Shown here piece by piece: positions 1 through 45,383 of a stretch of 64,000 bases of DNA (positions within the stretch are counted from its first letter, which is position 1; the number at the start of each line of letters is the position of its first letter). The position numbers were made by a program, and so were the translations under genes. Source of the stretch: Octopus vulgaris (Eukaryota); the NCBI GenBank assembly GCA_951406725.2, contig OX597818.1, positions 100,502,001 to 100,566,000 of the forward strand, read 5' to 3'. A model generated the notes under the pieces. The model saw only the letters and a list, made by a program, of their open reading frames with translations, ran no database searches and had not been told where the DNA came from.

Positions 1-1014
1 ATAGTTATAGTAACGAAAATGAAATGCTATAAGTTTGATAGAGGAAATACTTTGAAATATATTAATATTATACCGAATGTTTGTATATAACCTTCAGATA
101 TAAATTTTTACAGCGTATTTCATTCGCTAATATTTCACTGAAAAGGTTTTAAACGTTGAAATAAAGATAAATATTACTGATAATTAATAGTTTATGAAGT
201 GCTAGTTATGATATTATTACACATCTTCAAGCTAAGCTGCAAACAATTTATGCACTTATCTCTAACACATAAAACTAATTGAATTAATCTTAAGAGAGAA
301 AAATATCAAATGAAATAAATAAACATATATAAATAGAATATCGAAGGAAATTAAAATATCATTTATATTCTACAAGAAATTAGTGCATAAGTTCTCAGCT
401 ATCATCGCAAACATTTCAATAATTCCATGATTGGACAAGTAATTTTGATATAAATGTCTTTTAGTTTAAGAATTATACGCAAAAAACATCAGCGTTATGA
501 GAATTATTACTAAAAACTCACCTTTCGTATTAAGAAATATATAAAAGAATTTATCAAATAACACCAAAAACTGTGGGAATTCTGATATATAGTTATAGTT
601 GTCTCTTGACATATTCGTAAATAAGGCATTTAATATTAATGTACATTAGCTTTTTATGACTTGATAAAATGAGAAAAAACTTAGTTGAAATGCAGGTGGT
701 ATCGTGCAAAAAGATATGTTCACCTACTGACAGTTACCTTTAATTTGTAAAAAAAGGTTTGTACATTATGTACAGCTATAACACTCCAGTCAAAACAAGT
801 AGCTCAGGATGCCGTATGTCTGTATTAATTACAAATATATATGTATGTATGTATATATATATATCACTCAGAATTTATATGGATGCTTTATTAGTTTGTT
901 CTCTGTACCTATCTATAAATCTAGGAGTATATACATACATATCCATACCCACACACGTACATATGTATTCTTAAATACGTATATATTTACACACACACAC
1001 ACATACACACACAG

Positions 1015-1057
<43 letters not shown>

Positions 1058-1417
1058 GACAGAGAGAGAGAGAGATGCATACGTACACGCATAAATGCAC
1101 ACGCAAAAACTCAACGCAGATATATAAATAGATGTTGAAATTATATTACAGATTCAAAACAATTTTTTTTGCAAAAACACCTGAGTATCCCTGCTGAGTG
1201 TATCCATACTGATTGTAAGCTCGAAGTTATTGCGTGTTTCAAGTCATTTTAGTTTCGCCTATCACTTTTTCAATAAGTGATGGTATATTTATCTTTCCTT
1301 ACTTTTATATACGATGGTAAGTGTCAAGAAAAAAAAAGGATTATGTGATGTGATTGTACACCGGAGTGCGTCTACTGACGCACTTTGGAATCTTAATTGC
1401 ACACAATTTAAAAACTA

Positions 1418-1690
1418 TTACTCTTTTACTCTCTTATTATTTTTCTTTAAGTCATTTGACTGTGGCCATGCAGGAGTACCACCTTTAGTCGAGCAAATCG
1501 TCCACAGGACTTATTCTTTCTACGTCTAGTGACGGGGACGTAAACACACCAGCATCTGTTGTCAAGCGATGTTTGGTTGGCCCGAGGCTATAGTAGAAGA
1601 CACTTGGCTAAGGGGCCACGCAGTAGGACTGAACCCTGAATCATGTGGTTCGTAAGCAAGCTACTTACCACACACCCACTCCTACGCCTA
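1418..1690 (-). mobile_element. tRNA-derived CORE-type SINE (family A), internally deleted copy
   Basis: Reverse strand begins TAGGCGTAGGAGTGG..GTGTGGTAAGTAGCTTGCTTACGAACCAC..GGTTCAGTCC (A/B-box-like head), then CCTTAGCCAAGTGTCTTCTACT (CORE-like). It ends in the GGTGGTACTCC..CATGGCCACAGTCAAATGAC tail and matches many other copies in the window. Confidence 0.9.
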
Positions 1691-2564
1691 GTGTAGATTT
1701 TGTCATCATAGTACTTGCGCAAAATAAAACAGCAGTTTAATTGGAATAATTCGTGAGAACAGAAAGGAATTACCAGTCCATGAAAATGTGGTTTTGAAAT
1801 CCTCACAGATGCCTACTGCCACACATCGGACTAGTGCAAAAAATCAATGTCTGTTGTTGTTTTGAGTACTTTTCATCAATATGTAGATGTTCCTTCTGAA
1901 AATAACGCTAAGAAGGAGCCTGGTACCAATTTTTTTAATTTTATAACAAAATTAATGATGGCGTAGACGTGCTTGACCAAATGCAAGGGCTTCATTCAAA
2001 CAAAGCAAAGAGTGGACGATGACCAATACCCGATTTTTATAATATTTTGAATGTTGCCCTTATAAACAGCTGGTTAATATACACAAGTGCTTGCAACACA
2101 AGTCATTAGTCAACGGAAATATACTAAAAATGTTGGTGAAGTCCTTGTGGTGAGTCACGTCACGGTCGTCCATGTAACATTGGACATCCTATTGAGGAAA
2201 CATCTCCATTTAGAAATAATTTCAGACGTATATGCATGAAAGCAAAATGCTGAAATAGACCCACAGAAATATATGGAATCTGTAGAAAACCTGTGTGGCA
2301 AATGTACGCAAACACATTACGATGGCTGTTTAAAATTTCACTAAATTTCTTTTTGTTTGATAATGATAAATTTCTCACAAAATATTCACTTATTGTAAAT
2401 AACAGCACCGTGAAGTCATAGAAAAATCAATAGATTCTTACATTTAATAAAGTTTTCTACTTCTCCAATTAATTTTTTTCTTTCAAATTGTAAAACATCT
2501 TTTTCTGAGTTGATGCATTCTGGTCCTTAAACGAAAGTAAAAAAAAAGACCGGCCCATCTAGTG
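1691..2564 (+). mobile_element. piggyBac DNA transposon relic (3' half of transposase pseudogene plus right end)
   Basis: Frameshifted translation gives IGIIRENRKELP, KKSMSVVVLSTFH, FYNKINDGVDVLDQM, GR*PIPDFYNILNVALINSWLIY and a Cys-rich tail RRICMKAKC..ICRKPV. These are hallmark piggyBac motifs. It ends ..CATCTAGTG followed by TTAA (2565-2568). Confidence 0.85.
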
Positions 2565-2760
2565 TTAAGTAAACGGAAATATTTGCAGAATTATCCTACT
2601 TTAAACTAATTGCTTTAAAAGTAGAATTTACAGTATATGTCAAGATAACTAATTCGTGGTGAAGTAACATGCACACTTTAGTAAAGTTAGAAGAAAGTTG
2701 GGTCTAAAAGACACGATATAAAACAAGTACAGGTATAGTGTACATATATGTATGCACGTA

Positions 2761-2842
<82 letters not shown>

Positions 2843-2959
2843 ACACTACCACACCACACAACACCATACCACACACCACCACATCATACCACCACGAACA
2901 CGTCAATGTCACAAACCCTCTTCCACATGCACATACATGCTCTCTTATAGACACGCACG

Positions 2960-3232
2960 CGCACCTTCGTTTTGGGATCACCAATTCTTTATCATCTCCC
3001 CTTCTTCGTAGCTCTCCTGTGTGACCCCTCTATCCGATACACGCCATGATAAATAGCTAGCCACTACACATTCTTTATTTTCTTTCCTTGTTTCTTTCTG
3101 TGTTTCTTTCTGTGGAAGAGCGTTGGCTCGAAACGTTAAAGACTTTTTCATTTCCCGAGCGTTAAACTAATAAATCTGTTTTTTATCTACACCGCATGTC
3201 TTCGTCTTTTGTTTTTTGTGAATTCTCCCGAT
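2960..3232 (+). mobile_element. Penelope-like non-autonomous terminal fragment with a hammerhead motif
   Basis: Pyrimidine-rich segment ending in a (TA)-rich tract. It shares GAAGAGC..GCTCGAAACGTTAAA..TTTCC(C/T)GAGCGT with copies at 7275-7407 and 48729-48930. Confidence 0.6.
3105..3142 (+). ncRNA. Minimal type I hammerhead motif with one core substitution (A6U)
   Basis: Stem I TCTTT/AAAGA; core CTGTGGA plus an extra A; stem II GAGC-gttg-GCTC; GAAA-CG-TT (palindromic ACGT stem III). Confidence 0.55.
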
Positions 3233-3259
3233 ATATATCTATATGTATATATACAAGTA

Positions 3260-3514
3260 TGTGTGTGTGTTTATCTATGTGTTTCTGTCTTTATGTTTCA
3301 GTTTGTCCCCGAAACAATGCTCGACAGTCGGTTTTGGTGTGTCTACGTCCCAGTAATCTAGCTGTTCAAGAAAAGAGACTTATTGAATGAGTTCCAGACT
3401 TTAAAAATATGTCCTGGCGTCGATTTGTTCATCTTAAACGCTTCAAGGCCATGGTCCCATTATAGCCGCAGTCAAATGACTGAAAGAAGAAGTAAAAGAA
3501 TAAAAAGAATAAAG
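3260..3514 (+). mobile_element. SINE family A, 3' half
   Basis: TTTGTCCCC..GGTGTGTCTACGTCCCAGTAA..GTCCTGGCGTCGATTTG..GCCGCAGTCAAATGACTGAAA..GTAAAAGAAT. Confidence 0.8.
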
Positions 3515-19316: not shown

Positions 19317-19673
19317 TATATTCAATAAACCACATGCATTCAGGAATAATCAGAATTACATACACATATACTTATGTTTATATTCATAAAAGGTATGTAG
19401 GTAAATGAGAAGGGATGTGTGTAGAACGCTTTAGTGTATAATGTAACGCGAAAGTGAAACTAGCTATTATACTGCAAGCCGTATAAAGCAATTTCAATTC
19501 TTTTTATTAAAGACTTTCTCGGTGATTTCAAATGTCTTTCGTTATGTTCACATTATCAGCCGCTCAAGTTTCTCAAGAGATATATGTGAAACTCGGTATG
19601 AACAGTTAAATATTACCTGGAGTGAAATATATCCACTGACATATATATATATAAATATTTAGCACCAAATATG

Positions 19674-19837
19674 GGTGAAAGAGTACAGCAGGGATCACCA
19701 CCATCCCCTGCCGGAGCCTCGTGGAGCTTTTAGGTGTTTTCGCTCAATAAACACACACAACGCCCGGTCTGGGAATCGAAACCGCGATCCTCCAACCGCA
19801 AGTCCGCTGCCCTAACCACTGGGCCATTGCGCCTCCA
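19674..19837 (-). mobile_element. tRNA-derived SINE family C, 3'-truncated, with 27-bp TSD
   Basis: Reverse strand GGAGGCGCAATGGCCCAGTGGTTAGGGC..GGTTTCGATTCCC (A and B boxes). TSD ATATATAAATATTTAGCA(C/T)CAAATATG at 19647-19673 and 19838-19864. Confidence 0.88.
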
Positions 19838-20059: not shown

Positions 20060-20930
20060 GTCATTGATGATGATGACAAAGTTGAAGGGTAACCCAGGGC
20101 GATATGGAAACTCGGACCATGCTTCTTGAGGATGAAGAGAAAGTGGAAGTTGATGTTCGCATTGTAGAGAGCAATGTGGAAGAGAAGAAAGACGATACTG
20201 AAATGAAAGAGGAATAGGATGACAGTACATTTAATTTCAGACGTCCATACCCCTATCTGTAGATAATTCATAAATTAAAGCTGGAGGACATCACGGTTGC
20301 TATGTCCGAGTCGTCTGATTACAAGGATGGCTCCTGTTCGACCATCTGATATATTAGAAATCTGGTGTTAGGAAAGGGGTCATGCGGATGAAGTTTCCTT
20401 CTGAAGAAGCTGCTGAGGTTGTGTTTAACACGCCCATAAAAATCAATGGGAAGACCTTCGAATATGAACCTACTATTGAGGGTAACGATGGCAAAGCTAA
20501 AGATGGTAAAGGGAACAAGAACGACTATTCCCTCTATGTCAACAACATTCCCCAAGGAGTCACAGTGAAGGAGGTGCAGGCGTTGTTCCCGCAAGCCCGG
20601 AATGTGGTGATCCCCCATAATGAGGAAGACCAGTATCAGGGATATGCGCTTTTGGAGTGCCATTCTTACCAAGAAGCTGAGACTACGCTTGACGAGAGTA
20701 AGGAGCTGAAACTTAAGGAAAACGTCTTGACATGTGACCTGATTTTTCACTCCTCTAAAGAGGGTGATAAAGAATCGAAGAAGCAACAGAACAATCAGCA
20801 AAATATAAAGGGATGCTTTTCAAGCAGTCAGAATAACTGTAACCACCAGAGAACACACTCTTCGTGGTAATGGCGATTTGACGGGTATGTTTAGCATATT
20901 AGGTGTCCATTTTAGTGGTCATTCCTCTTA
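20060..20930 (+). pseudogene. Intronless nucleolin-like RRM-protein pseudogene (acidic N-terminus, two RRMs)
   Basis: ORF 20382-20870 has RNP2 LYVNNIP and RNP1 QGYALLEC. An upstream RRM end GVRKGVMRMKFPSEEAA and an Asp/Glu-rich stretch are broken by stops and frameshifts. GC is higher than in the flanks. Confidence 0.75.
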
Positions 20931-37540: not shown

Positions 37541-37950
37541 TCTTTATATATGTAAGGAGAGAGAGAGATAGAGTTAGAGAGAGAGAATGATGTAGATAAA
37601 ATAGATAAATAGATAGATTGATAAAAGAAAAACAGACATGGGACCTATCCTATATTGGATCTGAAGCTTGCATTGGATCGTAAACATGCCTGTGTGCATG
37701 TGCATACGTTCACATGTATATGTATATTTATATGCGTGTGTATATATGTACATGCCTATATAGGTGTATAATTATGTCAGTACACGGACGGCTCTATACA
37801 GATGTATTTCTATATAGTATATACACTTATGTGCCGAGCTCAACCCTCATTTCGTATCCGGAATATTAAAATTCCTTGCTTCAAGGAAAGTTAGATCGAT
37901 AGATCGATAGAAATATATAGGTATTAATGTGTAAGGTAAGTTCTATATTA

Positions 37951-38022
37951 TCCCATGTGGTCTAGTGGTTAGGATTCCTGGCTTTCACCCAGAAAGCCCG
38001 GGTTCGATTCCCGGCAGGGGAA
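37951..38022 (+). tRNA. tRNA-Glu-TTC: tRNA-Glu(TTC), probably a pseudogene or retrocopy
   Basis: TCCCATGTGGTCTAGTGGTTAGGATTCCTGGCTTTCACCCAGAAAGCCCGGGTTCGATTCCCGGCAGGGGAA, 72 nt with intact A and B boxes and anticodon TTC. Mismatches at A5.G68 and C27.A43. A T5 run follows at 38030-38034. Confidence 0.88.
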
Positions 38023-38035
38023 CTTGCTCTTTTTC

Positions 38036-38100
38036 TAATGGCGGTGCCCCAGCATAGCCACAGCTCGTGAGCTGAAACCAGATAAAACAAAAAAATAATA
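38036..38100 (+). mobile_element. Isolated 3' tail of the CR1-group LINE
   Basis: AATGGCGGTGCCCCAGCATAGCCACAGCTCGTGAGCTGAAAC matches 43438-43479 with about 2 differences, followed by an A-rich end. Confidence 0.88.
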
Positions 38101-38404
38101 ATATTAAAACACATTAAAACATCAAACGAAGGATTACACAATACTTTTTAGTAGAGTACATAGATATTACTTTTAAAGAAGAGTTCCATCTTGGATTCTT
38201 AGTTTCAATTCGGTGAAAGTGAGCGAGCCAAAACTTCGAGATCATAATCGATTTTTTTCCGTGTAAAATTTTACAAACACATTCACAAATACATGACCAC
38301 AATTGCACTCATGTGTACATAGTTGCACACATACACAAACTCACACAACACACACTCACACACGCACGCACGCACACACACACACACATATATATGAATG
38401 TATT

Positions 38405-41814: not shown

Positions 41815-41871
41815 ATATATACATACACATATACATGCACACACACAGTTATATATGTGTTTATATATATA

Positions 41872-43490
41872 AACTCAGCTACTGGCCCCGATGGATTCCC
41901 AGCAATCCTTCTAAAAGTATGTAAGAGAGTCCTAGCAAGACCACTGCAGTTCCCGTTTCAGAGCTTCCTTGCAACTGGCAAACTTCCAGAAAACTGAAGG
42001 AAGGTAAAATATGCCCTATTCATAAAGGAGGTAGCAGAGCTGAGGCCAAGAACTACAGACCTATCTCTCTGACCTCACACATCAGCAAGGTCATGGAACG
42101 AATAGTCAGGAGGAAACTAATCACCTTCCTTGAAGAAAATGGTTTCCGACCAGGAAGAAGCTGCTTAACTCAGCTCCTACAACACTATGTCTGGGTGCTG
42201 AAACGACTGCTCAACCACTCAAATGTGGAAGTGATATATCTCGACTTTGCAAAGGCCTTTGATAAAGTCGATCATGGAATGATATGTCACAAACTGCGTG
42301 ATCTTGGCATAGTTGGAAAATTGGGAGAATGGCTTCATGACTTTCTGAAGGATAGAAGTCAGGTGGTAGTAGGCAATGGGGCCACTTCCATTAACACGCA
42401 AATAGTGAGCGGTGTTCCGCAATGCACTGTTCTGGGACCACTACTGTTCATAATGGCCCTCTCAGACATGCCCTCAGCCACGCAGAGAGCCACGATCACA
42501 AGTTATGCAGATGAAACAAAAGTTTCACATGCAATACAGAACCCTGAATACACTAAGCACCTGCAATGTGAGCTGGACAAAATATACAAAAGGCTGAAAA
42601 GAATAGCATGCAGTTCAATGCTGAAAAGTTTGAAGCTTTATACTATCTGCATGAAAAACTAAATGCAATACCCAATAAATACACTGGACCTGGAGGGATT
42701 GCAATCCGAGAGGTACAATCAGTGCAAGACCTTGTTATTTACATGAGTGATGATGCAACCTTTCATGTGCATGTTGCTAAATTGGCAATGAAATGTAGGC
42801 GGCTGACCGGATGTAAACTTAGAACCTTTAGAACAAGAGACCAGGAAACCATGATGGTCCTCTGGAGGACACTTGTCCTAAGCCACTTTGATTATTGCTC
42901 TCAGCTATGGTCACCATCCAGTGTCAAGTTTATCACAGAAATTGAGGCGATCCAACGAAGCTACACGAAGCAGATAGCCTCTGTGCAGCATATAAGCTAT
43001 TGGGAAAGACTCAAGAGATTGAGACTCTATTCCTTAGAGCGTAGGCGAGAAAGATATGCCATAATATACATCTGGAAGATCCTATAAGGACTTGTCCCAA
43101 ACTTTGGCATCGAGAGTTACACAAATGCCAGAACTGGGAGCCACTGCATAGTGCCAAGGACTCCAAATTTGCCATCAAGATGTAGGACAAGATACCGTGA
43201 TAGCCTGGGCTTCCGAGGCCCACAGCTCTTCAATATCCTCCCGAAGAACCTAAGAGACCTGCATGGGGTGGATGCAGATGTCTTTAAAATGAAACTGGGT
43301 CTCTTCTTGTCAGGTGTCCCAGATGAATCAACTTCACGGCAGGAGGTGCAGATGAGTGCAGCTGCATCGAACTCTCTCATGCACCAGATGACAATTGATA
43401 AAAATCATTCGTGAATTAAAATCATGTAGCAACACCAAATGGCGGTGCCCCAGCATGGCCACAGCTTGTGAGCTGAAACTAAATATAAAA
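41872..43490 (+). mobile_element. CR1-group non-LTR retrotransposon, 5'-truncated, ORF2 (reverse transcriptase) pseudogene with 3' UTR
   Basis: SATGPDGFP..NYRPISLTS..GFRPGRSCLTQL..YLDFAKAFDKVDH..SGVPQCTVLGPLLF..YADETK..YWERLKRLRLYSLERRRERY. Frameshifts, a stop and YADD changed to YADE. ORF ends at 43414; tail at 43438-43490. Confidence 0.93.
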
Positions 43491-45327: not shown

Positions 45328-45383
45328 TTTTTTTATCTTGTTTCAGCTCACGATCTGTGGCCATGCTGCGTCACCGCCATTTG
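45328..45383 (-). mobile_element. Isolated 3' tail of the CR1-group LINE
   Basis: Reverse strand AAATGGCGGTGACGCAGCATGGCCACAGATCGTGAGCTGAAACAAGATAAAAAAA. Confidence 0.82.

Follow-up and report, generated by a model that had tools for sequence, protein, structure and literature searches.

The question raised by this locus, which lies in a 64,000-nt stretch of Octopus vulgaris DNA (hereafter the window), is whether a tRNA-Glu joined to the 3' tail of a LINE is a SINE at birth, as proposed in the first-pass annotation, a chimeric retrocopy parallel to U6-LINE fusions, as also proposed there, or a resident tRNA gene beside which a truncated LINE has landed. The parts recognized in that annotation (a 72-nt tRNA-Glu(TTC), a trailer with T5, a LINE tail of about 45 nt and an A-rich end) were confirmed in the sequence. 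The element and two related ones in the window comprise the following features.

37945..37950, + strand: left target-site duplication (TSD), ATATTA, of which a single copy is kept at the empty site in organism C
37951..38022, + strand: retrocopied tRNA-Glu(TTC), full 72 nt, without 5' leader, with four substitutions (ARAGORN)
38023..38036, + strand: pre-tRNA 3' trailer, CTTGCTC plus T5 at 38023-38034 (T5 at 38030-34), then CT at 38035-36
38037..38081, + strand: fixed LINE 3' tail of 45 nt with two adjacent hairpins, beginning 2 nt before hairpin 1
38082..38100, + strand: A-rich terminal repeat of an (ATAAA)-type tail subfamily, ending at about 38100
38101..38106, + strand: right TSD, ATATTA
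41870..43490, + strand: copy of the donor LINE, 5'-truncated and decayed, with a reverse transcriptase (RT) domain and the same tail at 43438-43488
45328..45381, - strand: solo tail of the same family with the same start point, without LINE body or tRNA

The tRNA-Glu(TTC) at 37951-38022 was the sole tRNA noted by ARAGORN in the window. This head was identical at 68 of 72 nt to a tRNA-Glu gene of a cluster described below, its four substitutions (37993-95 and 38017) disrupting one anticodon-stem pair and one acceptor-stem pair, while the tail, whose identity with the window LINE at its 3' end (43438-43488) was 90%, carried two more. With six substitutions in all, each private to this copy and absent from others, the element is about 5% decayed and is aged. 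The CT at the junction (38035-36), which was also present in 9 of 22 U6 fusions, may have been templated by a split terminator or added without a template.

Contigs of four public runs were compared with positions 37835-38270, those of runs X2 and X13 being uninformative in that they do not bridge the site. In run X17 (organism C), one 1552-nt contig covered 37886-37951 and 38108-38224 and skipped the intervening 156 bases with no letters between, both tRNA and tail being absent. These 156 bases equal the span between the first base of the tRNA and the last of the second ATATTA, so that organism C has an empty site and the 6-bp TSD holds. A random 6-mer of the window occurs in the relevant 30-nt stretch 2.6% of the time, so that the ATATTA repeat alone is weak evidence of a TSD, as the first-pass annotation had judged it; the empty site, which it had suggested looking for in relatives, upholds the duplication on the strength of this one contig. 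Thus, the tRNA and the tail were inserted as one unit, in the same orientation and with a TSD, which are the marks of a chimeric retrocopy, and the proposed parallel with U6-LINE chimeras is borne out for the window copy by that contig. Among fusions of the same kind elsewhere in the genome, described below, TSDs of at least 8 nt were present in 21 of 70 as opposed to 17% of controls, an excess that is weak and includes many TSDs in microsatellites.

A tRNA without the tail at the orthologous site had been named as the result that would point to a resident gene; the site in organism C has neither. Insertion of a truncated LINE or solo tail into the terminator of a resident tRNA gene, by targeting at the DNA level, would agree with the frequency of solo tails and their preference for AT-rich DNA but is scarcely credible given an empty site (one contig) that lacks the tRNA as well, 54 cluster tRNA-Glu genes that were read and all found without a tail, and the existence of spliced and 5'-truncated heads. 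In run X3 (organism B), a contig joined the tail to this same 3' flank (38058-38270). The insertion is thus likely common to organism B, and the window copy is not new.

The window copy was found to belong to a class when the genome (2.8 Gb, 227 contigs) was searched. Among the best 30 loci of a DNA search, 28 consisted of tRNA-Glu, trailer and tail with varied trailers, junctions and flanks, and the other two were tail-less genes. A pattern that looked for any B box lying 12-40 nt upstream of the tail matched exactly at 88 places and, when reversed as a control, at none; the patterns permit no mismatch, and these fusion counts are lower bounds. With seven matches set aside as SINE heads or chance, 81 tRNA-type fusions were kept, with 78 distinct junction strings, or about 76 independent events once one tandem pair and one five-copy segmental duplication were collapsed. 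The latter, five copies on C27 and C29 with one junction, had been considered as a case of amplification, but both flanks are shared and the copies are segmental duplicates. Heads were of ten types (Glu, Asp, Gly, Leu, Ser, Thr, Arg, His, Asn and Lys) as identified by ARAGORN and by eye. A similar search for U6 joined to the tail gave 22 fusions, with none in the control, and Rfam recognized full U6 in two of them (L127 and L190). No Rfam match was obtained for the heads of L188, L189, L191, L094, L106 and L060. At L188 and L189 (C1:62143678 and C1:64863049), the tails are preceded by U-ended sequences, one of them a short hairpin, which are possible unannotated Pol III RNAs. The head of L085 resembles tRNA-Lys(TTT) with about 20 extra nt after the anticodon and is possibly a copy of an intron-containing Lys gene.

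Published criteria separate summed chimeras from a SINE family by the independence of events and the presence of many plain LINE copies with the same 3' end (PMC4494074). Both were noted here: junctions differ, as do tail subfamilies, of which at least five were distinguished by terminal repeat, e.g., (AATC)n and (ATAAA)n, and the same 3' end is shared by 3467 tails that continue into the LINE. Thus, the window copy is one of about 100 one-off fusions at a fixed breakpoint, a point absent from the first-pass annotation. Trailer-bearing tRNAs were also joined to short 3' ends of other elements (L164, L166, L167, L168, L171, L172 and L218), some of which, including those of L164 and L167, we take to be RTE-like; capture is thus not restricted to one LINE.

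The heads of this class come from RNA. A cluster on C10 (81.83-81.97 Mb; L120, L121 and L177-L187) holds at least 54 tRNA-Glu genes in the stretches read, 51 TTC and 3 CTC, none with a tail. Sixteen of 33 Glu fusions have 7-12 trailer bases in common with a gene that lacks the tail, and a single trailer can be followed by several different junctions and tail subfamilies. An intron was present in 23 of 25 Leu-CAA matches, and both of the intronless ones have a trailer and the LINE tail, so that the template must have been a spliced precursor. The copy at L031 has kept the intron of gene L204 together with the end of its leader and a trailer nearly identical to that gene's. Heads were 5'-truncated in 36 of the 70 fusions scored. 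The spliced Leu-CAA heads with trailers and the truncated heads thus give the class the RNA-derived heads expected of chimeric retrocopies, and from the loss of the leader and the end of the trailer at the T-run the head of the window copy would appear to be RNA-derived too.

The LINE side of the fusions was found to be fixed. An A stands directly before ATGG in 77 of the 81, upstream LINE bases never exceed three in any of them, and the breakpoint, in the U6 fusions as in these, lies 2-3 nt upstream of the base of hairpin 1 in the two-hairpin tail. Exact tails numbered 7745 genome-wide, of which 3467 run 5 nt into the LINE (11 of 12 of these that were checked extend at least 218 nt); since the remaining 4278 include at most 696 SINE copies, about 100 fusions and some mutated LINE copies, solo tails are estimated at roughly 3,000-3,500. 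When hairpin 2 served as the anchor and the first 100 of 7338 matches were scored by eye, 44 tails continued into the LINE, 38 started at the fixed point and 18 inside hairpin 1; no clear start fell between -5 and -12. In a sister LINE, with 76% identity and another upstream sequence, about 17 of the first 100 tails listed were solo tails, which began about 2 nt ahead of its hairpin. Covariation supports the two-hairpin fold: among 13 tail variants, 4 of 13 pairs have changes on both sides, a count that uses related sequences and is not a probability. A hairpin that would instead span the breakpoint had been guessed by eye, but the folds predicted for six LINE 3' ends did not contain it, and a scan of the aged 3' end of the window LINE brought no Rfam family, ribozyme or other, near cut-off.

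The tail was said in the first-pass annotation to be the one used by family A. The two are homologous but not the same, hairpin 2 of family A differing with compensatory changes; the tail of family A occurs alone behind a Leu-CAA precursor at L212. Doubled tails were noted at L195 and L196, where a fragment ending after the hairpin 1 loop precedes a full tail, with the same end at two independent loci of different subfamilies; these look like jumps onto a second tail RNA.

A longer LINE copy, at L227, has an open reading frame of 956 aa (420-3287, - strand) with APE endonuclease and RT domains (PF14529/PF03372 and PF00078), and a CCCH-like motif, seen by eye and without a Pfam match, upstream of the endonuclease domain. 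The two domains in one frame, together with a short 3' UTR that contains a stem-loop and a terminal microsatellite, agree with the CR1-group (CR1/L2/Jockey) label of the first-pass annotation and make the donor a candidate for that group, and its C-terminus is presumably CR1-like. The LINE copies read have only about 3 kb in common. At L224 (C1:8120900-8128900), two near-identical 5'-truncated LINE copies of 2.1 kb lie in the same orientation about 3.9 kb apart.

By the SINEBase definition, a SINE has at least 100 interspersed copies of common origin, a head whose identity to a tRNA reaches 60% or more across 60 nt, copies derived from SINE RNA, with diagnostic changes common to the source copy, rather than from a cellular gene, and a Pol III transcript that runs through the tail (PMC3531059). 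The window copy has such a head, with its 68 of 72 matches to a tRNA-Glu gene. Its junction, when counted across the genome as the first-pass annotation had advised, occurred once, and diagnostic changes of the kind defined were not found, in that the heads of the class match cellular genes with their trailers and the changes in the window copy are its own. No tRNA-Glu gene with exactly this trailer and different flanks, as had been anticipated, was found either: an exact search for the trailer matched the window locus itself and one SINE-joined copy, and the nearest trailer, one base different, was that of gene L120 in the C10 cluster, among the 54 cluster genes read from those caught by the W-anchored gene pattern.

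A run of T5 or T4 before the tail should halt Pol III, and tRNA 3' processing would remove the trailer. Since T5 should stop Pol III before the part of the tail needed by the LINE enzyme, it argues against a newborn SINE, and for these two reasons fusions with at least four T's before the tail (57 of 81, window copy included) are dead ends. Multiplication was not seen among the 24 of 81 fusions that lack T4. The reading of the window locus as the master copy of a newborn SINE, with which intact A and B boxes, a full head and a minimal tail with both hairpins agree, is thus very improbable in view of the single-copy junction, the six substitutions absent from other copies, the T5 ahead of the tail and the same tail and 3' flank in organism B. 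The window locus is instead an aged, dead-end chimeric retrocopy of a known kind, and the phrase "SINE at birth" does not hold for it.

The successful SINE with this tail is another, young element, likewise absent from the first-pass annotation. It gave 696 matches genome-wide with one junction, identical in all 100 listed, and different flanks in 20 of 20 copies read (L244-L263), with a mean pairwise identity of 98.8%, and thus has the copy number that SINEBase asks for (PMC3531059). About 210 nt long, it consists of a tRNA-like head of about 160 nt and part of an older SINE body, followed by a LINE tail of one subfamily ending in (AAAAC)n; 3 of the 20 copies were slightly 5'-truncated. The tail was taken at the same fixed point, with a 2-nt AA overlap, and was joined inside the parent SINE. 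The window itself contains, at 19672-19835 (- strand), a tail-less, 3'-truncated copy of the older SINE that ends almost at the same body position. A direct repeat of some 25 nt stands on either side of it, a long TSD that suggests another mobilizing enzyme. Also in the window, a 170-aa open frame at 20358-20870 (+ strand), with a weak RRM_1 match just under cut-off (E 0.0007), is a possible exon or retrocopy.

How the fixed point arises is a separate question. We consider it probable, with some reserve, that each fusion is a one-off chimeric retrocopy in which a pre-tRNA with its trailer (pre-tRNA-Glu in the window copy) was joined to the fixed LINE tail of about 45 nt by an end-to-end jump from a short, tail-only RNA. 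By this scheme the two-hairpin tail would be the binding site of the LINE enzyme, and LINE RNA would be cut, or trimmed 5' to 3', up to the protected two-hairpin structure to leave a template of about 50-60 nt. The RT would copy this tail-only RNA to its 5' end (run-off) and add 0-2 untemplated bases, after which the cDNA end would either join target DNA, giving a solo tail, or pair with the 3' end of an available RNA such as a pre-tRNA, U6 or SINE RNA. Most products would be dead ends in which the T-run halts Pol III before the tail, and a head without a T-run could multiply as a SINE.

The scheme leans on the RT of R2, which jumps to another RNA only on reaching the 5' end of its template, not from a pause, and adds untemplated bases (PMC8594491). 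The octopus fusions resemble these reactions in 5'-end run-off, untemplated bases and capture of another RNA's 3' end, and the analogy makes it likely that the fixed point marks the genuine 5' end of an RNA. R2 belongs to another clade than this LINE, however, so that the end-only rule is borrowed, and the R2 data are from in vitro reactions whereas the present record is genomic and of an APE-type LINE. Joins of tRNA heads to the 5' start of whole SINEs, where the RNA has a genuine end, were noted, with the starts scored by eye, at L165, L170, L169, L173, L062, L207, L215 and L219. Likewise, of 15 dispersed full-length tRNA-Glu(TTC) copies examined by eye, 5 led into a whole-SINE start, 6 into other short 3' ends and 4 resembled plain genes, and 3 of 20 Leu-CAA loci were joined to the start of family A. 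Some of these tRNA-to-SINE-start joins could be SINE insertions behind genes. Counter to end-only jumping are a join inside an element at L214 and RTE-like tails of two lengths at L164 and L167; with the internal join of the 696-copy SINE, these indicate that the enzyme also switches templates at internal positions or on RNAs that are broken. The 18 of 100 tails that start inside hairpin 1 also weigh against the preferred scheme.

A short RNA could be dispensed with if the enzyme, on full-length LINE RNA, often aborted just after the bound hairpins because it did not pass from initiation into elongation, the released cDNA end then annealing to target DNA or to U-ended RNAs. This would account for the fixed point, the solo tails and the sister LINE without a processing step, and joins inside elements do exist. 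We regard it as rather unlikely, since a paused R2 RT does not jump (PMC8594491), the sharp upper edge, with its skew solely toward shorter products, fits run-off and trimming, and run-off jumping is evident in this genome from the tRNA heads joined to true SINE 5' starts.

Ligation of RNA before retrotransposition appears still less likely. LINE RNA would here be cut at the fixed point to leave a 5'-OH, an RtcB-type ligase would add U6 or pre-tRNA, and the fused RNA would be retrotransposed; a fixed RNA 5' end is likewise required. Such ligation was demonstrated for human U6/L1 chimeras and needs a 2',3'-cyclic phosphate (PMC6789731), and there are 22 U6 fusions here. Pre-tRNA trailers are not known to carry that group. 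The extra G/C letters and variable A's at 16 of 81 junctions, some of which may be trailer bases, fit untemplated addition by RT. The human and octopus chimeras are alike in that a U-ended Pol III RNA is fused to the 3' part of a LINE and then inserted with a TSD. In the human case, junctions vary along L1 with variable truncation, whereas here the LINE side is fixed, extra junction letters occur and there are tRNA heads.

Fusions of this general kind are known from other animals, and the likenesses and differences given here refer to those parts of the reports that were available. Thus, the U6-L2 and U6-Mon-1 chimeric retrocopies of platypus and the U6-L1, -L2 and -RTE chimeras of Anolis (PMC4476161) also have a Pol III RNA head, often 5'-truncated, that is followed by a short stretch of a stringent LINE or of that LINE's SINE, with short TSDs, those of platypus U6 fusions to short L2 pieces being 1-9 bp; template switching was proposed there as a route by which SINEs gain LINE ends. 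The heads in that report are snRNAs, as opposed to mostly pre-tRNAs of ten amino-acid types with trailers in the octopus, and the portion available states no fixed point, as opposed to one point common here to thousands of solo tails and a live SINE. In mammalian pre-tRNA and tailless retropseudogenes (Schmitz 2004, as cited in PMC4476161), a pre-tRNA similarly serves as template for a LINE, but without the LINE tail that primes insertion here. Mollusc SINE families share tails of 35-61 bp (PMC11481361) and swap modules (PMC4758252), and the octopus tail is like these short LINE-derived 3' modules in length and in being shared between SINE families. Those reports, in the parts available, deal with finished families, while here a single genome contains the intermediates of one-off events, the module in free form and one family that succeeded. 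U6-LINE chimeras being already known, the present class adds the fixed breakpoint, thousands of solo tails, broad capture of Pol III RNAs and one successful SINE. No account of fixed-point pre-tRNA-tail fusions, solo tails and broad tRNA capture was found in the literature searched, which was mostly open-access, and an earlier description may exist.

For annotation, these results are a warning that dispersed "tRNA genes" and repeats of about 50 bp in such genomes are retro-products that are missed or miscounted by filters. With a fixed breakpoint, the processing of LINE RNA to a minimal template can be tested directly by biochemistry, and the enzyme's recognition module would be defined to the base. 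The acquisition of LINE 3' ends by SINEs has so far been argued mostly from finished families, whereas here the intermediates can be counted with respect to which RNAs were captured, at what stage of maturation (leader, intron, spliced, trimmed trailer), where the LINE part starts and which products multiply. With the 696-copy SINE carrying the tail at the same point, the probable way in which SINEs acquire their tails is on record in this genome. More tentatively, and at somewhat less than an even chance, the tail to which the RT binds is regularly set free in this LINE lineage as a separate RNA of about 50-60 nt that acts as a universal adaptor for mobilization, yields the commonest truncated product of the family and captures Pol III transcripts end to end, which would explain why the tails of SINEs coincide exactly with the minimal module for recognition. 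If this were so, the genome would hold the whole path of SINE birth, from a free module in thousands of copies through about 100 one-off trials to one winner with 696 copies.
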